DNA of 11,265 nucleotides. Source: a virus. Taxonomy: Duplodnaviria; Heunggongvirae; Uroviricota; Caudoviricetes. The translations under genes and the position numbers were made by a program. Of this stretch, positions 431 to 11,265 are shown one piece after another. The notes under the pieces are model-generated. The model had not been told where the DNA came from and did not search any database. It saw nothing but the letters and a program-made list of their open reading frames with translations. The DNA lies in the IMG/VR virus record IMGVR_UViG_2541047828_000001, one strand, 5' to 3'. Each line of letters starts with the position of its first letter. Position 1 is the first letter of the stretch.

Positions 431-1714
431 TTACAGACTTCTGGAAGGTTGCGCAGCTCTTACAACACGCGGTTGATCTTCCGCAGCGTCTTCCAGCGCA
501 CTTAAATCACGGTCTTTCACCTCTGGCATTTTCAGCGCAGAGATTAAACCAATTACTGAATATGCCATGATCATAATGGCGATCGGATACCAGGATTCCG
601 TCATGGTGCAGAAAATACCCGCCAGGATAGGACCAAAACCGGAAGCGATAAGACCACCAATTTCTTTAGAAATAGCCATCCGGGTAAAGCGGTTTTTACA
701 GCCGAACATTTCTGCCATGGTAATGTTTTCCAGAGCAAATAATCCCAGCACCGCACAGTTATGAATCACAATCAGTGCAACCATAATGGTGCTCGGGGCA
801 TAGCTTTTATCTACAATGATAGAAAGCATTGGCCATGCCAGCACAATCGCGGAGGTATTCATAATAATATACGGGATCCGGCGACCAATTTTATCGGATA
901 ACCAACCAAGGAACGGAATGGTCATAAAGCCGAGAATCGAACTAATCATCAATGCATCTGTTGGAATTGCTTTGTTAAACAATAACGTCTGCACTAAATA
1001 GCCTGCAAGGAAAGTCTGAATTAACCCGGAGTTACCCGCCTGACCAAAACGCAGCCCTGTTGCCAGCCAGAAGGATTTGCTCTGGAACATGCTACCAGCA
1101 GGTGCAGGTTTTGCTGTGGGTTGGTTGCTGTCATTAACCTTCTCAAAGACCGGGCTTTCTTTCAGATTCATACGTAACCAGATAGCAAAGACCATCACGA
1201 CAACGCTCGCCAGGAACGGTATACGCCATCCCCACGCCAGCAGTTCCTCTTTACTGAGAATGAAGAACATAAAGGCCCAGATTGCCGTTGCGCTCAAGGT
1301 TCCGCAGTTAGTTCCCATAGCTACAAATGAGGAGATAATTCCGCGCTTACCTTTTGGTGCATATTCCGCCAGCATCGTACCGGCACCGGAAATTTCCGCA
1401 CCTGCACCCAACCCCTGAATAATACGCAGCGTCACCAGCAAGATGGGGGCAAAAACACCAATCTGTGCATAGGTCGGTAACACACCAATTAAGGTGGTAC
1501 AGATCCCCATCATGGTGATGGTAATAAAGAGCACTTTTTTACGCCCTATTCTGTCGCCCATTTTGCCGAAAATAAATGCTCCGACAATACGCGCCACATA
1601 ACCTGCACCGTAGGTTCCCATTGCCAAAATTAACGCCATTGCCGTTGATGATTCAGGAAAAAATATTTCATGAAACACCAACGCTGCGCCGAGCGAATAT
1701 AACTGGAAATCCAT
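431..1714 (-). CDS. ydfJ: MFS transporter (metabolite:H+ symporter-like), 427 codons, lacking the normal N-terminal ~30 residues
   Basis: A 427-aa ORF with multiple hydrophobic segments and MFS-like motifs (GxLxDRxGRKK, GxxAEYAPxxKRG). The product starts MDFQLYSLGAALVFHEIFFP, i.e. inside the conserved (E/D)W(Y/F)DF..LYG motif that normally lies ~25-40 residues into MHS-family transporters. An in-frame TGA lies two codons upstream and there is no Shine-Dalgarno sequence. Confidence 0.8.
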   Translation of the reverse strand: MDFQLYSLGAALVFHEIFFPESSTAMALILAMGTYGAGYVARIVGAFIFGKMGDRIGRKKVLFITITMMGICTTLIGVLPTYAQIGVFAPILLVTLRIIQGLGAGAEISGAGTMLAEYAPKGKRGIISSFVAMGTNCGTLSATAIWAFMFFILSKEELLAWGWRIPFLASVVVMVFAIWLRMNLKESPVFEKVNDSNQPTAKPAPAGSMFQSKSFWLATGLRFGQAGNSGLIQTFLAGYLVQTLLFNKAIPTDALMISSILGFMTIPFLGWLSDKIGRRIPYIIMNTSAIVLAWPMLSIIVDKSYAPSTIMVALIVIHNCAVLGLFALENITMAEMFGCKNRFTRMAISKEIGGLIASGFGPILAGIFCTMTESWYPIAIMIMAYSVIGLISALKMPEVKDRDLSALEDAAEDQPRVVRAAQPSRSL

Positions 1715-2317
1715 AATTCACAGGTGTTTTTTCCCATCCTGTGGTTTCCTTGGCGTTTTCTAGGTTTTTTCAGATAGTTGCATTTTTTAAAAAGCATCCT
1801 AAGTTCGATCTCAGTGTCTATCTGGGGCCTATTTCTGTCCCATATATGCCCCAAAAAAACTCCCCAACAGATAAGTAGTTTTTTCATGGATTTATGCGTA
1901 AAATCAAGAACGGCTGGAAATCATTCAATACTCACACTATCGAAAAATTTACCAGCCAACCGCAGCACGTTCTTGCATAAGGCGTGTCTGCGGTTTTTCA
2001 ACTATTCAGATACATCACTCCCATCACATTCATTCCTCCGCATCAAAGGCATATAGGCTATATCACCTTGATATTTTTCTTTTTCAGATAAAAACTGTTA
2101 TCTATGTATACTTTTAAACCCAATCCGTGTAGAGTCTCTGCATAAGATAGTTTGCAGTTGCCGCTTCAGCTTGCGCCATAAACCGCCTGATTTTTGCTGC
2201 CACCTGTTAGCATTCCTGTATACCTGAAACGACAATGTTTATCTACGAACTTTAAGAACACCCAAGATAAAAATTGTCAACTATATCATATATAACACAT
2301 TACTAATTCGAGGCTAT

Positions 2318-2431
2318 ATGAACAGCATACTGATAATCACATCTCTCCTTATCATATTCAGCATTTTTAGTCATGCCCTAATAAAATTAGGGATTGGCAT
2401 ATCCAATAACCCAGACAAAACCGATGTATAA
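2318..2431 (+). CDS. Hypothetical 37-aa hydrophobic small protein ([37 protein letters not shown])
   Basis: ATG at 2318 with GAGG 4 nt upstream (2310-2313). Residues 3-28 are uniformly hydrophobic and the tail is polar. It ends 68 bp before the ydfK start on the same strand. Not in the ORF track because it is under 60 codons. Coding status is unproven. Confidence 0.3.
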
Positions 2432-2499
2432 GTCAACATATCCTGAATCAGACATACAATATCGCAATGAAAATCAATAATATTTTAAGGAATATCTTC

Positions 2500-2733
2500 A
2501 TGAAATCAAAAGACACCCTAAAGTGGTTCCCTGCGCAGCTTCCTGAAGTAAGAATTATCCTAGGGGATGCTGTAGTGGAAGTAGCAAAACAGGGAAGACC
2601 TATCAATACCAGAACATTGCTTGATTACATTGAAGGAAACATAAAGAAAAAATCATGGCTGGATAACAAAGAATTATTACAAACAGCGATATCAGTTCTT
2701 AAAGACAACCAAAATTTAAATGGCAAAATGTAA
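2500..2733 (+). CDS. ydfK: Small prophage protein of the YdfK/YnaE family (77 aa)
   Basis: ATG at 2500 is preceded by AAGGAA (2487-2492) with a 7-nt spacer. The ORF-track start at 2467 has no SD. The sequence MKSKDTLKWFPAQLPEVRIILGDAVVEVAKQGRPINTRTLLDYIEGNIKK is recognised from memory as the Qin/Rac YdfK/YnaE protein, and it sits between ydfJ and pin as in K-12. Confidence 0.8.
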   Translation: MKSKDTLKWFPAQLPEVRIILGDAVVEVAKQGRPINTRTLLDYIEGNIKKKSWLDNKELLQTAISVLKDNQNLNGKM

Positions 2734-3049
2734 TATAATAAACTTACTTTTTTATCATTTTTCCACTTTAACAACATTTTGCTCCACTTTTCCACGACCA
2801 AACAACTTGAAATCTGGTTAAAATAACACGCAACACTATTCTTCTTCCTTGAGTCCGCCCGGAACTCGAAAAACAAACCGAGTTAAAGCCATTTTTCACA
2901 AAATCGATTTTGGGTCTCACCAAAATTACGGGGTTGCATACGCATTCGTTTATTTTCGAACGTGTACATACAAATATGCACAAAAATAATCATAATTATT
3001 TTCTGAGATGCATTATGATATGAACACCAATTTCGTATAGAGTCTCACT

Positions 3050-3640
3050 ATGTCTCGAATTTTTGCTTACTGTCGGATATCAACGCTGGATCAGACCACC
3101 GAAAATCAACGCCGGGAAATCGAAAGTGCAGGTTTTAAAATCAAACCTCAGCAAATAATCGAAGAACACATTAGCGGCTCAGCAGCAACCAGTGAGCGTC
3201 CTGGTTTTAACCGGTTGCTTGCTCGCCTGAAATGTGGTGATCAATTGATTGTGACAAAACTGGATCGCCTTGGTTGTAATGCAATGGATATCAGGAAAAC
3301 AGTGGAACAACTGACCGAAACAGGTATCAGAGTGCATTGCTTAGCATTGGGTGGCATTGACCTGACCAGTCCAACAGGAAAAATGATGATGCAAGTAATT
3401 TCAGCAGTCGCTGAATTTGAACGAGACCTTTTACTTGAACGCACTCATTCCGGGATAGTAAGAGCCCGCGGCGCAGGGAAACGTTTTGGTCGACCACCTG
3501 TGTTAAATGAAGAACAGAAACAGGTGGTATTCGAACGAATTAAGTCAGGTGTAAGTATAAGTGCCATTGCCCGGGAATTCAAAACCTCGCGGCAAACCAT
3601 TTTAAGAGCCAAAGCAAAACTTCAGACACCTGACATATAA
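3050..3640 (+). CDS. pinQ: Pin-type serine recombinase / DNA invertase (196 aa)
   Basis: N-terminal YCRISTLDQ catalytic-serine motif (Ser11) with resolvase/invertase-fold motifs, and a C-terminal helix-turn-helix ([18 protein letters not shown]). Length and sequence match the Pin invertases of Rac and Qin from memory. The Q suffix is inferred from the ydfJ/ydfK context. Confidence 0.9.
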
Positions 3641-3737
3641 AAAATAATCTCGGTGTGAGATGCTTTACGTCTTCCAAGCCCCCTTCCTTGCCGTAAATGG
3701 AAAGATACATCTAATTATAGAATTTATATGTTTTACC

Positions 3738-3911
3738 CTACGGCAGTGCTGGCCATTCAATATCCGGTACTACTGATGTATTAACACGGTTCAGCAACAC
3801 CCGATACTTTTTCCAGACTTCTAGCAACGAAGTTTCTTCCTCCGTTGCGATTTCCAGCTCAACAACAGTCTGAACGTACCAGGAACAGCCTCCTTCAGGG
3901 CTTGAAGGATA
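3738..3911 (-). pseudogene. tfa: 3' relic of tail fibre assembly gene tfa (last ~45 codons, no start codon)
   Basis: The minus-strand frame continuing straight after the stf stop translates as [57 protein letters not shown]. From LEIAT onward it is near-identical to the C-terminus of lambda Tfa as I recall it ([39 protein letters not shown]). There is no Met or GTG start in this frame. The stop is at 3738-3740. Confidence 0.7.
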
Positions 3912-6900
3912 TCAATGTTCGCTTCCTGTTAACTGCCCGACAAGTGCAACCAGTTCGCTTACCTGATTTTCCAGAGTGCTGATCCGGGTGCCTGCTGTTG
4001 CCAGATTTTGACGTAGCGTTGTGTTTTCCTCTTCCAGCGCGGTAACGCGATCATCTGTTTCACGGGCGACCTGAACAAGTAAGCCCGTCACGGCGGCGTA
4101 GTCAACATTCAGATAACGTGTTTCTTCACGTAATTCATTGCCGTCAACCGTTGGTCCCTGCAACTCTTCACCGTAATGAGTAAACGATCCCACAGCTTCT
4201 GGTATCGCCTCCATTACTTCCTGTGCAATAACGCCAGCATAAGGCATCCCGTTTTCCCTGAGCGTGTAGGTGTATCCGTTCATTTTACGGATTGCTTTCG
4301 TCGCGTCGCTGATAACGAGAATATCGTCTTTAAGGTCGCGGTCTGATGACTGATTCAGCGTTGTGCAATTAATAGCGCCATTTACATCAAACAACTGGCC
4401 TGCTGACGTTTTTTGCGCATAAAACAGATACGCAGCAGACGTTCCAACCTCAAAAAAGTTTTGTCGAGTACTGGAACCCCACACCCTGACAGAAAACGGT
4501 AGTTCTGCATTACCTGAGTTCTGTAAAACAAAACGATTGCCAGTCCCTGATTGTTTTGTAAGGGTTAAATCAACAGTTGAGTTAACCTCATTCCTGTTGA
4601 TAGTGAGCGCCTGCGCTGTAGCCCCGTTAACAGCACCTGTTTTGAGTTGAACCGCGCCGTCATTACCATTTAACAGTATCTCAGCTCCGCTAAAGAAATT
4701 TTTTAGCGACAGCATCTTACTTACGCCGACTGATGAACCCAACGCCCACGCGAGAGAATTACCGGTGCTATCAAACCCACGTACAAAGCAATCCATTTTG
4801 CTATAGTCTGACGTGCTTCCAAGGACATCAATCCGCCCTCCGCCAGATTTTAACGGGTTAGATGTGGTTAATGACCTGACAGCAAGATCGGTGGATGAAT
4901 TTAGATCGTCTACTGTTAGTAATTTCTTCCATTCCTGCGTCGTTCCGTTTTCAACTGTTCTTCCCCAAAAACCGGAATTGCGGCCTCCGAACTGCACAGC
5001 ATAATTTTTACTAAATTGAACATGAATGCCGCCAAGAACCATAGAACCTGCCGGGCCGTTTGTACTGCCTGCGATTGGTCTAAATTTGTCGACGTTATCA
5101 GTATGCTGAGAGTTCCAGTCATGACCTGTTAATGTTGCGATTCCTGAGTTAGCTGTAATTAACCCAGACGCTTTAAGATTTTGCACATCAATTCTGTCGT
5201 TTGCGAAATTATATGCAATTGCGTTACTAACGCTTCCGGCATCATCATAATCGCGTTTCTGAATAAACCAGTCGCCAGCATTAGCAATGAGAGTATAAGT
5301 AGGCGTGTTAGCCGGGCGATCTGTTTCATTAAATCTTATTGCTGGGTTAGCGCTCCTTATTTGTAAAGGTTTTTCAACCGTTGATTTCAGTATCGCACTA
5401 TCTACAATTAAATTACCTTCTGAGTTAAGGTTTAGATATTTTGAAGCACCAGTTGAACCATCGTATGTAAACCTTATTGTTAATTGACCTGGCTCATTTG
5501 ATAAAGTCTCAACATACATATCAGCACCAAGACGCACAGTGCTGTCAGTTGCTAACAGTCTTGTATGGAGAATACCACTAGATGTGTATGTATTGGTCGA
5601 ATCACTATATCTATCAAGAAATAGACTGTTAAGTTGAGGGCTATTACTCCTGCCTAATCCAAGATTCGTTCTGGCACCATCAATAGTTGCCGCACCAGTA
5701 CCACCATGAGAAACATCAAGCGGTATCCATTTTTTTTGTGTGTCGCTGTAACACCCCCATGTTGATCCGGTTAAACCCAGGCGCATGGATTTATCATGGT
5801 TATATAACCATGTTTCGCTACTCCATTGGTCAAGACGGTCCACTTCATTTTTGCGAGCGTGGCGTGTCCATTGCGGGCCTATTGTCGGATTCCAGCGATA
5901 AGTATAAAGCGAGCGCGTAGCCCATCCCTGAAATACACCTGTATACGCTGGTGTTCCATCTACCTGACTAATAAACCCCGTAAGACTGCTTTCACCGGAT
6001 GCAATCGATGGAAAGCCTTTTGCATTACTCATAATGCGCATAAATCCGATATACCCTGATGGGTTGCCGGAAATATCAGGACAATCACGCGGTGCTGAGC
6101 CAAGACCGATATTATCGCCAACAATTAATTGCGCCTGGTTGCGATAATTAAGTGCGTCCGCCGCAGATTTCGCCGCGTTTGTTTCACTGGATTTAGCATT
6201 AGTTTCGCTGGCTTTAGCGTTGGTTTCGCTGCTCTTTGCTGCTGCCTCGCTATTTTTCGCGTTGGTTTCTGATTTTTTGGCTGCTGTCGCGGAGTTTGCC
6301 GATGCAGTTTGTGAGTCTGCTGCCGCCTGTGCGCTGTTATCCGCATTCGTCTCAGACGTTTTTGCGGCCTTCGCGGAATTTCCTGCCGCCGTTGCCGAGG
6401 AAGCTGCACTACTGGCACTTGATGATGCGTTCGTTTCTGATGATTTCGCTGCCTCTTTTGAGGCCGCCGCATCCCGGGCTGAGGTGGCAGCTTCTGACGC
6501 TTTCGTGGTCGCGGTGGATGCAGAAGTAGCTGCAGATTTTTGTGACGCTGCAGCATTCGTTTCTGACGTTTTCGCCGCACCGGCACTGGTGGCTGCCGCG
6601 CTTTTTGAGGACTCTGCAGCGGCAGCACTTTTTAATGCTTCAGTGGCCTTTGTTGATGCCGTTCCTGCGCTGGAAGATGCTGACTGAGCAGATGATGCAG
6701 CCTGTCCGGCTGACGTGCTGGCGGCACGTGCTGAGCCTGCGGCATCGGTTGCATGGGTTGCCGCCTCACAGGCAGATGTGCCGGCATCGCTGGCTGACTT
6801 CTTTGCGGCAGCCGTGTTCTGTGCCACTGCGGACGCGTTATGCGCCACCTCTTCCACCATCAGTTCAAAGCGGCGCAGTGCCTCCGGACGGGCATCATCC

Positions 6901-7184
6901 TCCGTCATGGCACCAAGAAAATCATTCAGCGTACCCGGTTGTGAGTCTTCATACACGGTGATGGTCCCGGCATGCGATGGCGGGAAGCCTTCCACCAACA
7001 GAATAACGCTGTACTGACCGTACTCAACGTCCATGCTGTAACGCCCGGCTTCATCCGGATTTTCTGAGGCCACCGTGTTCACCACCACCGTGGTGCTGTT
7101 ACGTTTTGCTTTCAGCTGGATTGTGCAGTTCTGTACCGGTTTACCTGCACCGTCTTTCAGTACACCTGAAATCTTTACTGCCAT
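3912..7184 (-). CDS. stf: Side tail fibre protein (~1090 aa) with a C-terminal intramolecular chaperone domain
   Basis: The N-terminus MAVKISGVLKDGAGKPVQNCTIQLKAKRNSTTVVVN matches lambda Stf from memory. The likely start is the ATG at 7182-7184 with GGGGTG upstream; the ORF-track start is a GTG two codons earlier. The stop is at 3912-3914. It follows lom in the lambda order J-lom-stf. Confidence 0.9.
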   Translation of the reverse strand: MAVKISGVLKDGAGKPVQNCTIQLKAKRNSTTVVVNTVASENPDEAGRYSMDVEYGQYSVILLVEGFPPSHAGTITVYEDSQPGTLNDFLGAMTEDDARPEALRRFELMVEEVAHNASAVAQNTAAAKKSASDAGTSACEAATHATDAAGSARAASTSAGQAASSAQSASSSAGTASTKATEALKSAAAAESSKSAAATSAGAAKTSETNAAASQKSAATSASTATTKASEAATSARDAAASKEAAKSSETNASSSASSAASSATAAGNSAKAAKTSETNADNSAQAAADSQTASANSATAAKKSETNAKNSEAAAKSSETNAKASETNAKSSETNAAKSAADALNYRNQAQLIVGDNIGLGSAPRDCPDISGNPSGYIGFMRIMSNAKGFPSIASGESSLTGFISQVDGTPAYTGVFQGWATRSLYTYRWNPTIGPQWTRHARKNEVDRLDQWSSETWLYNHDKSMRLGLTGSTWGCYSDTQKKWIPLDVSHGGTGAATIDGARTNLGLGRSNSPQLNSLFLDRYSDSTNTYTSSGILHTRLLATDSTVRLGADMYVETLSNEPGQLTIRFTYDGSTGASKYLNLNSEGNLIVDSAILKSTVEKPLQIRSANPAIRFNETDRPANTPTYTLIANAGDWFIQKRDYDDAGSVSNAIAYNFANDRIDVQNLKASGLITANSGIATLTGHDWNSQHTDNVDKFRPIAGSTNGPAGSMVLGGIHVQFSKNYAVQFGGRNSGFWGRTVENGTTQEWKKLLTVDDLNSSTDLAVRSLTTSNPLKSGGGRIDVLGSTSDYSKMDCFVRGFDSTGNSLAWALGSSVGVSKMLSLKNFFSGAEILLNGNDGAVQLKTGAVNGATAQALTINRNEVNSTVDLTLTKQSGTGNRFVLQNSGNAELPFSVRVWGSSTRQNFFEVGTSAAYLFYAQKTSAGQLFDVNGAINCTTLNQSSDRDLKDDILVISDATKAIRKMNGYTYTLRENGMPYAGVIAQEVMEAIPEAVGSFTHYGEELQGPTVDGNELREETRYLNVDYAAVTGLLVQVARETDDRVTALEEENTTLRQNLATAGTRISTLENQVSELVALVGQLTGSEH
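3915..4346 (-). other. Peptidase S74 / C-terminal intramolecular chaperone domain of stf (last ~144 codons)
   Basis: The C-terminal segment SDRDLKDDILVISDATKAIRKMNGYTYTLRENGMPYAGVIAQEVMEAIPEAVG fits the S74 chaperone signature (S-D-x-R-x-K ... Y ... G-x-IAQEV...P). It is followed by a heptad-like tail (RVTALEEENTTLRQNLATAGTRISTLENQVSELVALVGQL). Confidence 0.75.
6156..6839. repeat. Intragenic imperfect tandem repeats encoding the Ala/Ser/Thr-rich (K)SSETNA repeat region of Stf
   Basis: Protein residues ~118-345 are low-complexity with recurring KSSETNA, KTSETNA and SAATSA units. In the DNA this appears as reiterated gtttc/tttcgctg/gcggc motifs. This is a known feature of lambda-type Stf. Confidence 0.6.
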
Positions 7185-7190
7185 ATTCAC

Positions 7191-7248: not shown

Positions 7249-7848
7249 TCAGAACTTATAACCGACACCCACGATGAAACCGTCAGTGCGCCAGTCGCCA
7301 CTGCCGGAGCCTTCATAAGCAATATCAATGGCCACGGATTCGGTCGGGTTAAACTGCACGCCAGTCCCCCACGCCAGAGACGTGTTGCTGCGGCGACCGT
7401 CATCACTTCCGGTCAGCACTTCGTGCGTTTTCCCCTTGTTGTCAGTTACGCGGAGATAATCCCCGGAGAAAGTAGAAATACGGCTGTAAGCCACACCCGC
7501 CATCGCATACGCGCTGAACCATTCATTCACGCGCACAGACGGCCCCGCCATCACGCTGAACCAGCGGTTACGCACGGAATCTTCATGCCAGCGGGTATCG
7601 CTGTAATGAGTCAGCTGGCGATTCTTGTCTTCTGCATAGCTGAATGACGTCACCATCCCCAGCGTGTCCGTAAACTCATAACGGTATTTCACGTTAATCC
7701 CGTTAAGATCATCGCTGCCGGGAACGTTCGTCGAGGCATGAAGATACCCCGCGCTCAGCGAGGACTGATGTTCAGACGCCCATGCAGGCGCACCGGATAC
7801 GACCAGACAGATGGCTGCGGACAAAATGGCTGCACAAACTTTACGCAT
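7249..7848 (-). CDS. lom: Lom outer-membrane protein (Ail/Lom/PagC family), 199 aa
   Basis: MRKVCAAILSAAICLVVSGAPAWASEHQSSLSAGYLHASTN... has a signal peptide with AWA|SE cleavage-like site, is near-identical to lambda Lom from memory, and ends in the beta-barrel terminal YKF. GAGAGG lies upstream of the ATG at 7846-7848. Confidence 0.9.
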   Translation of the reverse strand: MRKVCAAILSAAICLVVSGAPAWASEHQSSLSAGYLHASTNVPGSDDLNGINVKYRYEFTDTLGMVTSFSYAEDKNRQLTHYSDTRWHEDSVRNRWFSVMAGPSVRVNEWFSAYAMAGVAYSRISTFSGDYLRVTDNKGKTHEVLTGSDDGRRSNTSLAWGTGVQFNPTESVAIDIAYEGSGSGDWRTDGFIVGVGYKF

Positions 7849-7918: not shown

Positions 7919-10900
7919 TCAACGAATACTGATACCGGAAGCAGCCTTTTTGGTCACAATCACCGTACAGTCGGTGATATTGCCTGCCCCCTGATTGCCT
8001 TTCTGGAAAATCTTAAACTCCAGAGTGACGCTTCCCCTGCCACTCGGCATATCAATAACCGCACTGTAACTACCGGGAATGGCCCCTTTAGTTTCTCTGG
8101 ATGCGATTAATACGCCGTTTTTGCGAACTTCAAAACCATACCCCGTGTACCTTGTACCTCCCGGGTTATCACCACTTCCCGGATCGTCATACGCTATACC
8201 GTTAAAGATAATGGGCGGAATAATGATTTGACGGTCAAAGTTATGATCATCGCTGATGGTGACTGTAACCGTCCCGTCTGGTGTTTCCGTATTACCCCAC
8301 GTACCAGCCTGTTTCGGGAATGATTTGGATACTGTTTTAACAAAATCACCTCTGACCTGATTCGCCTCCAGCATGCCCTTAATCGTACAGTTTTCATTTA
8401 TCGTGACGTTGTTGAGCGTCCCGGAGTTCGCATTCACACTGCCACTGATATCCGCATTTTTAGCGGTCAGCTTTCCGTCCGGTGTCAGGGAAAATACCGG
8501 TGGATTTCCACCACTGGTAATGGTGGGGGCCGTCAGACGTTTGAGGAACACGTCGTTCATGAATATCTGGTTGCCCTGCGCCACAAACATCGGCGTTTCA
8601 TTCCCGTTTGCCGGGTCAATAAACGCGATACGGTTAGCAGCAACCAGAAACTGGCTCAGTTTGCCTTCCTCTGTATCCTCCATGCTGAGGCCAAGCCCCG
8701 CGACATAATGTTTGCCGTCTTTGGTCTGCTCAATTTTGACGCCCCACATGGCATTCCATTTATCGTTGGCGTCTTTCCACTCTTTCGAAAACTCCTCCAG
8801 TCTGCTGGCGTTATCCTCCGTCAGGTCGACTTTTTCCAGCAGCTCCTTGCCGAGATGGGATTCGGTTATCTGGCCTTTGAAAAAATCCAGGTAACCTTCC
8901 GCATCATCGCTCGCCCGACCGACGGCCTCCACGAATGTCGATTTGCCAACGGTGTTCACACTGCGGATATAAAAGTAATAATCATGGCCCGGTTTGATAT
9001 TGATACTGGCGGCTATCCAGTACAGCGCCGTACCAAGATAGCGGGCTGTGGTTTCAACCTGCCTGATATCGGTAATCCGCTTTTCCGAGAACCAGAACTC
9101 AAACTGTACTGTCGGGTCATAAACGGCAAGATGCGGCGTGGCGGTTATCTGAAAATAGCCCGGCGTCAGCTCAATCCTCGACGGTGTTGCCGGTGCGGCA
9201 ATCCGGAACGATACCGACGCCGGATCGCCCTGCTGTCCCCACGCATTTACCGCCCGGACTGTCAGCGTGTAGTTCCCCAGCGCCAGTTGCGTGAAGCGGT
9301 ATGTGGTTTCCGTCGTCCGGGCCGTGCTGACCAGCCGCTCACTGCCGTCATCCGCTGCCACGGTCAGGCGAAGCATAAAGCTCACCCCCTTCACCACCTT
9401 CGGCGTGTCCCAGCGCGCCAGCACCTGATATTCCCCGCTGTCTGCGGTGACTTCGGCAGTCAGGTGCTGCACCGCTGGCGGCGTGACACCATTCACCGTG
9501 CCGCTCTGGTCGCCGTCAAAGTGCGCCCCGTTATCCACGATGGCCTCTTTTTCCGGTACATGCTGCACGGCGGTGATGGCATACGTGCCGTCATCGTTCT
9601 CACGGATACTCACGCAGCGGAACAGACGCTGGCGCAGCGTCGGCAGCTTCAGCCCCCATACGCTGTATCCGGCAACGCCGTCAGGAACACGGCTCACTTT
9701 TACCTTCACGCCGTCGGTGACGGACTGGACCTCCACGCTGACCGGATTGCCACTTCCGTCAACCAGGCTTATCAGCGTGGTACCGGAGGATGGCAGCGTG
9801 ATTTCACGGTCGAGCGTCAGCGTCCGGGTCTGGCTGTTCACCGCCAGCACGCGCCCGCCGGTGCTGATCCCCGCATAGTCATCATCGCAGATTTCAATAA
9901 CATCACCCGGCACATGGCGAAGCCCTTCGGCACCCACGCTGAAATCCACGGTCTGCGTCTCCAGCAGCTCCGTTTTAATCAGCCACAGCCCGGCGCGGTG
10001 TGCCTGCCCCCGGCAGGTACAGCCAAAGGCATCCATCTTCGTAACATTACGACCGTAACGGGCAATGGCCTGCGTATCTTCAACAAGCTCTGTCGCCGTC
10101 TCCCAGCCGTTGTTCGGGTCAATCCAGTTCACCTCAACGGCATTATGGCGGTCCTTCAGGGCGCTGAAGCTGTAGCGGAACGGCGCGCCATCATCCGGCA
10201 TCACCACATTACTGCGGTTATAGGTCCACACCTTATCCGACGGTCGGTCCTGCACGAACGTCAGCGTCTGCCCGTTCCATACCGGCATACAGCGCATCGC
10301 CGAGCAGAAATCACTGAGCACATCCCACGCCTTGCGCTGTGTGGTCAGGTACGCATTACAGGTGATGCGCGGCTCCGTGCCGCCAAAGCCGTCCGGCACT
10401 GACTGGTCGCAGTACTGGCCGATGACATACAGCGCCCATTTATCCACATCCGCCGCACCAAGACGTTTCCCCATGCCGTAGCGCGGATGGGTCAGCATAT
10501 CCCACAGACACCAGGCCATGTTGTTGCTGTATGCCGGTTTAAACGTTCCGTCCCAGATACCGCTGTATTGCCGCGTCTGCGGGTTATAATTCGACGGCAC
10601 CTGCAGAATACGCCCGCGCAGATGATAATTACGGCTCACCTGCTGGCTGCCGAACTGCTCCGAGTCCACCTGCACGCCGACCAGTGCCGTGTTCGGGTAG
10701 CACTGTTTCACATCGATGATTTCGGTGTATGACGACCAGAGCGTTTTGTTCTGCAGCTGGTCTGTGGTGCTGTCCGGCGTCATCCTGCGCATCCGGATAT
10801 TAAACGGGCGCGGCGGCAGGTTATCCACCACCACCGAGGCCAGATACTGCGACGTGGTTTTGCCCTTAATGGTGATGTCTTTTTCCGTCACCCAGCCACC

Positions 10901-11265
10901 ATTACGCTGTATCTGAACCAGCAGGCGGACTTCCGACGGATTCCGATCACCCTTTGAGGTGGTTTCCACCAGTGCCTGCACGCCGAAAGTAAAACGCAGA
11001 CGGTCAATGTTTGCCGACGTGATGGTCCGGGTGATCGGCGTGTCATATTTCACTTCCGTACCCAGCACCGTCTCGGAGCCGGAGGATTCAAATCCCTCCG
11101 GCGGTGTCTGCTCCTGCTCACCTGCCCGGAACACCACCGTGACGCCGGAGATATTGGTATTCCCCTCACTGTCCAGCACCGGCGTACTGTTCAGCAGCAC
11201 GCTTTTTAATCCATCCACCGGACCTTCAACCGGCCCTTCGCTGATGGCATCGATCACACTCAGCA
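7919..11265 (-). CDS. J: Tail tip / host-specificity protein J (central tail fibre), 5'-partial; ~20 N-terminal codons lie beyond the window end
   Basis: A 1112-codon frame that is essentially collinear with lambda J from memory ([28 protein letters not shown]...). The apparent start at 11257 is an internal GTG; the frame stays open to the window edge (..LSVIDAIS). The last ~150 residues diverge from lambda J. Confidence 0.9.

Follow-up and report, generated by a model that had tools for sequence, protein, structure and literature searches.

pinQ beside the tail-fibre genes of a Qin-type lambdoid prophage: very probably the stranded resolvase gene of a decayed Tn3-family transposon

A complete gene of the Pin invertase type, pinQ, lying beside the tail-fibre genes of a lambdoid phage with no evident invertible segment next to it, raises the question of where such a gene came from and what its product could act upon. 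This locus was analysed in a DNA stretch of 11,265 nucleotides from the virus record IMGVR_UViG_2541047828_000001 of IMG/VR (Caudoviricetes), hereafter called the window, to which all coordinates refer unless another sequence is named. The initial annotation had taken pinQ for a fibre invertase of the Gin/Hin/Cin/Pin type, either orphaned by the rearrangement that installed the S74 tip of the neighbouring fibre or acting on sites elsewhere. The results presented here point to another origin, in which pinQ is very probably the tnpR gene of a decayed Tn3-family transposon, probably a Tn5403-like one, and not a Din-family invertase that lost its segment. This reading follows from remnants of terminal inverted repeats (IRs), a target-site duplication (TSD), a putative, eroded res site and the homology of PinQ to the TnpR proteins of transposons. 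The gene itself is as follows.

3050-3640, + strand: pinQ, 196-aa small serine recombinase (very probably a stranded tnpR), Resolvase domain at residues 4-144 and HTH_7 domain at residues 147-190.

The reading frame is complete, as had been reported, with both the Resolvase and HTH_7 domains and with Ser11 inside the motif YCRISTLDQ. Nevertheless, its placement among fibre invertases did not hold. PinQ is 38% identical to PinE, from which it diverges in the helix-turn-helix (HTH) region and recognition helix, and likewise 38% identical to Gin; Din-family members are generally about 60-70% identical to one another. Searching NCBIfam with PinQ returned no family above cut-off. In contrast, the TnpR encoded by plasmid pRM10386-2 (locus L003), also of 196 aa, is 85% identical to PinQ, and a Shewanella homologue (L013) is 77% identical, with other relatives at 77-78%; the L003 and L013 genes each adjoin a Tn3 DDE transposase. 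By these comparisons, and considering the IR remnants and TSD described below, PinQ is no close member of the Din family.

In the nearest relatives with intact transposons, res lies between divergent tnpA and tnpR genes and the whole is enclosed by IRs. The classic order in the Tn3 family likewise has res between divergent tnpA and tnpR, with site III beside tnpR (PMC7157771). On pRM10386-2, the tnpR homologue is divergent from a Tn3-family transposase inside perfect 38-bp IRs (GGGGTCCGCTTGGAAAACGGAAAATATCCCACGCTAAG, at 2882-2919 and 6658-6695 of L003), and a 5-bp TSD (TTTTA) stands exactly outside their GGGG ends. This 3.8-kb cryptic transposon is also present on many other IncF-type E. coli plasmids. 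A plasmid search found about 250 plasmids with pinQ homologues at 80-90% identity, and the Shewanella locus has the same layout with an intact transposase of 1033 aa (DDE_Tnp_Tn3). Annotation pipelines used in Klebsiella plasmid papers call the resolvase gene beside Tn5403 "pinR" (PMC13253593), and Tn5403 itself is a cryptic member of the Tn3 family and generates duplications of 5 bp (PMC5142620). The plasmid transposon is therefore probably Tn5403-like, a link drawn from annotation strings in two papers only and not from sequence comparison; a literature search for the 38-bp IR sequence gave no match. At the Photorhabdus (L015) and Budvicia (L022) loci, extra copies of the 38-bp IR were seen to cut into or precede truncated tnpR genes, which suggests nested or repeated insertions of this transposon family.

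When the window was scanned with the 38-bp IR of the L003 transposon, its two best matches were found to flank pinQ in mutually inverted orientation (2850-2887 on the + strand and, ungapped, 3649-3686 on the - strand). The boundaries of the putative insertion are as follows.

2845-2849, no strand: left TSD copy TTCCT, identical to 3684-3688 and immediately outside the left IR remnant.
2850-2887, + strand: left Tn3-family IR remnant (IRL), 24/38 positions matching the L003 IR, best + strand match in the window, pointing inward.
3649-3683, - strand: right IR remnant (IRR), 27/35 aligned positions matching the L003 IR, 3 nt being deleted behind the terminal GGGG.
3684-3688, no strand: right TSD copy TTCCT, immediately outside the right IR remnant.

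An IR match of 24 or better turned up in 1.75% of the Markov shuffles when the whole window was shuffled, and in none of 5000 when only the 316-bp spacer between ydfK and pinQ was. Both ends thus carry terminal repeats of the 38-bp Tn3-family type (GGGG...ACGCTAAG), each in degenerate form, and TTCCT is present on both sides as a 5-bp duplication, its right boundary depending on the 3-nt gap in the IRR alignment. The IRR remnant is continuous with the homology of pinQ to the plasmid transposon, which stops there; by megablast, this homology extends over 2994-3679 and comprises promoter, gene and IRR. The cassette so delimited measures 834 bp (2850-3683), or 844 bp with the duplications, and is bordered by ydfK on one side and by the 3' end of tfa on the other. 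A GGGG-initiated stretch at 2931 was also considered as a further IR and dropped for its poor score.

Upstream of the gene, an alignment of seven homologues from different genera displays a conserved res of three subsites, with the consensus TGWCCGAAA-N8-TTTCGKACA for site I, TGTMCGAAAGT-N10-ATTTCGKACA for site II and CGTACAYCCATTTCGTACA for site III. The window aligns to it column for column and in register, but in an eroded state (2937-3039), with the subsites and arms listed here.

2937-2962, + strand: remnant of res site I, the ancestral crossover site (9+8+9 bp), by alignment to the homologues.
2937-2945: left arm of site I (I-L), 4/9 (CATACGCAT).
2954-2962: right arm of site I (I-R), 7/9.
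2977-3008, + strand: remnant of res site II, by alignment to the homologues.
2977-2985: left arm of site II (II-L), 7/9, CG core lost (CACAAAA).
3000-3008: right arm of site II (II-R), 7/9, CG core lost (TTTCTG).
3019-3039, + strand: remnant of res site III, adjoining the gene, by alignment to the homologues.
3031-3039: right arm of site III (III-R), 8/9 (TTTCGTATA).

The left repeat of site III retains 4/6 positions, by manual count on the homologue alignment, and a conserved TATGAT/TATAAT box stands between sites II and III. In a diverged prophage copy (L034), the I-L arm still matches at 6/9 positions (CATCCGAAT), which indicates that site I started out complete and was eroded by point mutations; consequently, the idea that the transposon homology ends inside site I through a resolvase-mediated break was rejected. 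A scan of the rest of the window for the res half-site of this clade (TGTCCGAAA) gave chance-level matches only. A perfect 14-bp palindrome (CAAAATCGATTTTG) was also noticed at 2899-2912, between the IRL remnant and res site I; in L034 both of its arms are extended (AAAAAATCGATTTTT) and remain approximately symmetrical, and the plasmid transposon has nothing equivalent. A protein might bind at this palindrome.

The first of the two alternatives in the initial annotation concerns the neighbouring fibre genes, which lie downstream of pinQ.

3738-3863, - strand: tfa relic, C-terminal fragment (41 aa) of a tail-fibre assembly protein, matching Caudo_TAP at profile positions 90-130 of 131 (E = 2e-17).
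3912-7190, - strand: stf, side tail fibre, phage_tail_N at residues 3-136 and Peptidase_S74 at residues 949-1000.

The spacing of 271 bp between the stop codons of pinQ and stf (3641-3911) was confirmed. It had been described as largely filled by the tfa relic; the relic is there, but accounts for 126 of the 271 bp, and a further 35 bp are the transposon terminal-repeat remnant. As had been found by eye, no gix- or pix-like inverted pair could be detected. The AAACCNNGGTTT core gave 4 matches in the window at up to 2 mismatches against 5.9 expected, none of them near pinQ or stf, the published e14 pix core gave 0 matches in the window at up to 3 mismatches, and an inverted-repeat search of the window and three other PinQ loci returned no candidate pair. 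As a positive control, the same inverted-repeat tool recovered the pix pair of e14 (21 nt, 95% complementary, 1797 nt apart), the right-hand site of which is 62 bp upstream of pinE. Alternative fibre-tip/tfa cassettes are likewise absent, the window having a single stf and a single tfa relic and K-12-type loci one tfa. pinQ would accordingly have no crossover-site pair in cis, and its neighbouring fibre genes would not be inverted by PinQ.

The distribution of the cassette bears on the same alternative. Of 5426 complete E. coli genomes, 2731 contain the 844-bp cassette at 80% coverage or more, in most cases with at least 99% identity. A PinQ of 99-100% identity is also encoded in 11 phage records (10 distinct phages, 2H10 appearing twice), among them HannyBb, mEp460_ev081, 2H10 and Tritos. 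In HannyBb (L002), the sole phage locus read, pinQ stands between the int/attP side (ynfT-ydfK) and the tail-fibre genes, which there form an unrelated module. K-12-type genomes share the identical cassette and its flank up to about 3860-3876 of the window, a point inside intact tfaQ/tfaR. Overall, PinQ-bearing loci have different fibre modules alongside, and the cassette does not vary with the adjoining module, being alike in prophages of the Rac and Qin types and in sequenced phages. Conversely, the S74 tip together with the tfa relic (3749-4400) recurs as a unit in an E. coli prophage context without pinQ (H22), which indicates that the tfa truncation travels with the S74 module. Hence the S74 swap did not orphan pinQ, contrary to the earlier proposal.

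An invertase of the Gin/Hin/Cin/Pin type whose invertible stf/tfa segment was destroyed by the arrival of the S74 tip would fit the closeness of pinQ to stf with a tfa relic in between, and also the fact that Gin is the best match of PinQ by sequence among solved structures (bit score of 105, compared with 82 for gamma-delta resolvase). Such an enzyme should not, on the other hand, be at 38% identity to PinE and Gin and at 85% to a transposon TnpR, nor should the same cassette and flanks adjoin intact tfaQ/tfaR and other phage fibre modules with no invertible segment in any of them. The published BLAST survey found inversions only in e14 and none in Qin or Rac (PMC12529663). The orientation also differs, pinQ being convergent with the fibre genes, at which its 3' end points, while the 5' end of pinE abuts the e14 P segment. 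Together with the occurrence of the S74 and tfa-relic module without pinQ in H22, this leaves the orphaned invertase extremely improbable and, in effect, refuted; as far as the compared loci tell, pinQ never had a local invertible segment.

If pinQ is a stranded tnpR, the state of its catalytic residues becomes of interest. One position stands out.

3275-3277, + strand: codon 76, TGT, encoding Cys where Tn3/gamma-delta resolvase has its catalytic Arg (R71), by alignment.

In the alignment, PinQ alone has Cys here, compared with Arg in nine transposon-type homologues, Gin and gamma-delta resolvase; PinE has Arg as well, and the same codon of the L003 plasmid homologue reads CGT. When the 120 closest cluster representatives are compared, this Cys is confined to the 5 that belong to the PinQ (prophage) lineage. 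Of the six critical residues of Tn3 resolvase (Y6, R8, S10, D36, R68 and R71), PinQ keeps the counterparts Y7, R9, S11 and R73, so that the set is incomplete, and E39 takes the place of D36 throughout the PinQ clade. R71 is one of the six residues whose mutation abolishes recombination by Tn3 resolvase, the R71A and R71K substitutions both having this effect and slowing cleavage about 1000-fold (PMC2794168). The statement that nothing in the sequence argues for inactivity must therefore be withdrawn, and catalysis by PinQ is, from its sequence, probably impaired.

These data also bear on whether PinQ could be a working resolvase on its own upstream res, for instance in the resolution of phage multimers or in recombination between Rac-type and Qin-type prophages. 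The gene and its upstream region are kept together at about 99% conservation, the TTTCG core is retained in two res arms, and the TATGAT box persists between sites II and III, all as such a role would predict. But the left arm of site I is down to 4/9, the invariant CG is lost in both arms of site II and the catalytic Arg is replaced by Cys76, while the upstream conservation reflects recent common descent with no demonstrated constraint. A functional resolvase is consequently very unlikely.

A second prophage allele, "PinQ2" (L031 5580-6790, NZ_CP134663.1; cluster P0009, 374 members), is 85% identical to PinQ and has Cys76 in the same cassette. Its flanks are about 99% identical to the window, yet its coding region is 10% diverged (synonymous divergence, dS, 0.21), a contrast that could come from a mosaic or from fast evolution. 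In the HTH region PinQ2 has 8 unique changes, as against 2 own-branch changes of PinQ relative to the transposon TnpR (L161F and T180S). The ratio of nonsynonymous to synonymous divergence (dN/dS) is 0.36 when the two Cys alleles are compared, 0.05 for a pair of transposon TnpRs and 0.13-0.17 for the PinQ alleles against the plasmid TnpR. Constraint in the Cys lineage is thus relaxed about seven-fold but not abolished, with 31 nonsynonymous changes compared with about 79 expected (own calculation, assuming about 3.3 nonsynonymous sites per synonymous site and 24 synonymous changes).

Recombinant-looking copies were also met. The L034 copy (5620-6700; GCA_910593615.1, a prophage beside prfC/dinI) has the IRL, site I, IRR and TTCCT of the prophage type, but the interval between the spacer of res site II and about codon 180 matches the plasmid transposon at 97% identity, Arg76 included. 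It looks as if gene conversion had brought plasmid-type sequence into a prophage cassette and so restored Arg76, and the copy speaks for a true homology between the prophage cassette and the plasmid transposon. The representatives of clusters P0004-P0007, 91-93% identical to PinQ, combine an N-terminal half of the plasmid TnpR type (with Arg76) with a C-terminal half of the PinQ type; all are from short contigs, and they could be real recombinants or assembly chimeras.

The selection data bring in the possibility that PinQ was exapted as a non-catalytic DNA-binding protein, either a regulator or a partner or modulator of PinE-type invertases. A dN/dS of 0.36 is below neutral, the HTH of PinQ has only its 2 own-branch changes, Cys76 is held in two alleles that are 15% diverged, and phenotypes of pinQ deletion and over-expression have been reported although PinE is still required for inversion (PMC12529663). 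Against this, no binding site or regulon is known, the 8 HTH changes of PinQ2 look like decay, and the gene could have persisted by hitch-hiking in a successful phage module. Exaptation of this kind is therefore a possibility to be kept in view, though a doubtful one.

Several observations weigh against the derivation of pinQ from a transposon and the impaired activity of its product. The IRL remnant matches at only 24/38 positions and its terminal GGGG reads TGAG. No tnpA gene is present in the window cassette, and a search for tnpA fragments between IRL and res gave chance matches only, so that the cassette is a relic and no longer a transposon. Neither the 5426 E. coli genomes nor the phage collection yielded an empty site (ydfK-TTCCT-tfa), no record spanning the junction when the two flanks joined across one TTCCT served as query; the insertion is accordingly deduced from the IRs, the TSD and homology only, which is the main gap in this part of the argument. 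The open reading frame (ORF) is intact in thousands of genomes with dN/dS below 1, implying some function under selection. The R71A and R71K mutants of Tn3 resolvase were described as "not inert" (PMC2794168), and Cys76 may thus permit weak activity. The half-sites of res site I in the PinQ clade (TGWCCGAAACC) and of pix (TCTCCCAAACC) are similar, both sites being 26 bp long, and some cross-recognition by PinQ is therefore conceivable. Lastly, with PinQ over-produced, the inverted share of the e14 P segment was reported to rise from about 30% to about 88%, with protection against T2 (Kirigo et al. 2025; PMC12529663).

In the same joined-flank search, the mEp460 reference (JQ182728.1/NC_019716.1) matched only in tfa, and mEp460_ev081 (LR597641.1) has ydfK and pinQ. 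These similarly named phages thus differ in carrying the whole ydfK-pinQ region.

The report on e14 is the basis for regarding PinQ as an active invertase in trans, acting on the pix-type sites of the e14 P segment and thereby giving a chimeric StfE2 that blocks T2 adsorption (Kirigo et al. 2025). In that study the P segment was inverted in 88% upon pinQ over-expression, survivors were inverted and survival of the delta-pinQ strain was lower (PMC12529663), and the resemblance between the two half-sites is in agreement with such a role. However, the delta-pinE strain was locked in one orientation despite the presence of pinQ and pinR, and the strain table has no delta-pinE strain with a pinQ plasmid (PMC12529663); consequently, direct catalysis by PinQ has not been separated from that by PinE. 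Cys76 at the catalytic Arg position and the very different DNA-binding domains of PinQ and PinE also speak against it.

For the window itself, the stretch 1700-4400 was queried and is 100% identical to E. coli FDAARGOS_1058 (NZ_CP065970.1), and in this genome iraM lies directly beside an intact icd (3858226-3859902; L033), which implies that the e14 prophage, which contains pinE and the P segment, does not occupy its usual attachment site. The K-12-type P segment with pinE is covered at 80% or more in at least 170 genomes, a lower bound since the inverted state splits the match, compared with 2731 of 5426 for the cassette. The suggestion that PinQ acts on sites elsewhere therefore finds a counterpart in the published inversion of the e14 P segment in K-12 (PMC12529663), but not in the strain that matches the window, where this target is missing from its usual site. 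Taken as a whole, an invertase activity of PinQ itself on e14 is unlikely.

Returning to the stranded tnpR, a single ancestral transposition into a lambdoid phage would have brought in the cassette. Later, tnpA would have been lost, res would have decayed by point mutation and the Arg equivalent to R71 would have changed to Cys. PinQ would probably still bind the remaining res arms and repress its own promoter, as TnpR proteins do, and would probably be a poor catalyst or none; any role in recombination would need to act in trans. More tentatively, PinQ and PinR, present in about half of E. coli genomes, might be catalytically crippled, exapted Tn3-family resolvases that affect inversion only indirectly, by way of pix-like sites or of mixed complexes with PinE. 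This is a rather improbable extension, but it would explain how over-production of PinQ biases the e14 P segment while the delta-pinE strain stays locked.

The window as a whole covers the end of a lambdoid prophage of the Qin type that sits within ydfJ; around the features already listed, its gene order is as follows.

431-1714, - strand: ydfJ'.
Between ydfJ' and ydfK: ynfT.
Up to 2733, + strand: ydfK.
7249-7848, - strand: lom.
7919-11257, - strand: J.

The tfa relic, labelled partial in RefSeq, is outside the pinQ cassette, and stf is context and no substrate of PinQ. The N-terminus of ydfJ is missing because the prophage inserted there, and the adjacent ydfI is also annotated as partial (431-1956 of the window; L001 6186-9015). 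Homology to non-Qin contexts begins at about 1942-1956, probably the prophage end. At 6125-6961, several ORFs of 97-167 aa run across the Ala/Ser-rich repeats of stf (KSSETNA-like) in other frames and on the + strand; they are probably artefacts of repetitive, GC-skewed coding sequence.

pinQ and pinR have long been annotated as "invertase" genes of E. coli K-12, and the anti-phage paradigm of 2025 rests on PinQ as an active invertase. Identity as a stranded resolvase would explain why no invertible segment lies beside pinQ, and it cautions that a "Pin" annotation near fibre genes need not mean a host-range switch; in this window, the S74-tipped fibre would not be phase-variable. Should the indirect effect on PinE be true, PinQ would be a non-catalytic modulator of a serine-invertase switch, and the mechanism of the "recombinase-activated" anti-phage system would have to be revised.

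Compared with known systems, PinQ shares with the Din invertases (Gin of Mu, Cin of P1, Hin of Salmonella and PinE of e14) the small serine recombinase architecture of Resolvase and HTH_7 domains, a gene position near phage tail-fibre genes and, in the site I of its clade, a 26-bp site (12-2-12) as in gix and pix with a similar CC-N-AAACC half-site motif. It differs from them in its 38% identity to PinE, its divergent recognition helix and its missing R71-equivalent Arg, and its gene has neither an inverted crossover pair nor alternative fibre cassettes and turns its 3' end, not its 5' end, toward the fibre genes. With PinQ/PinR of the K-12 Qin and Rac prophages the relation is one of identity, the gene being the same, the order ydfJ'-ynfT-ydfK-pinQ being that of Qin, and PinQ being 99-100% identical across E. 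coli and 100% identical in several phage records. The window departs from these in its S74-tipped fibre gene, its tfa cut to a 41-aa relic and its matching strain, which lacks e14, the published trans target, at icd.

The tnpA-less derivatives of the Tn3 family (TIMEs and MICs) are short elements with Tn3-family terminal repeats, a 5-bp TSD and no transposase, and the window cassette resembles them in all of these features. It differs from them in retaining a complete tnpR together with a res remnant, in having repeats so degraded (TGAG for GGGG on the left) that mobility is unlikely, and in giving no sign of multiple independent insertions. The plasmid transposon of pRM10386-2 contrasts with the window cassette in that the latter is without a transposase gene, has eroded IRs and res, carries Cys76 for the catalytic Arg and sits in the b-region of a lambdoid phage and not on a plasmid. 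The two are nonetheless alike in protein sequence (85% identity), in the length of 196 aa, in the res layout suggested by alignment, with site III by the gene, in a 38-bp terminal repeat after the tnpR stop codon and in a 5-bp target duplication.

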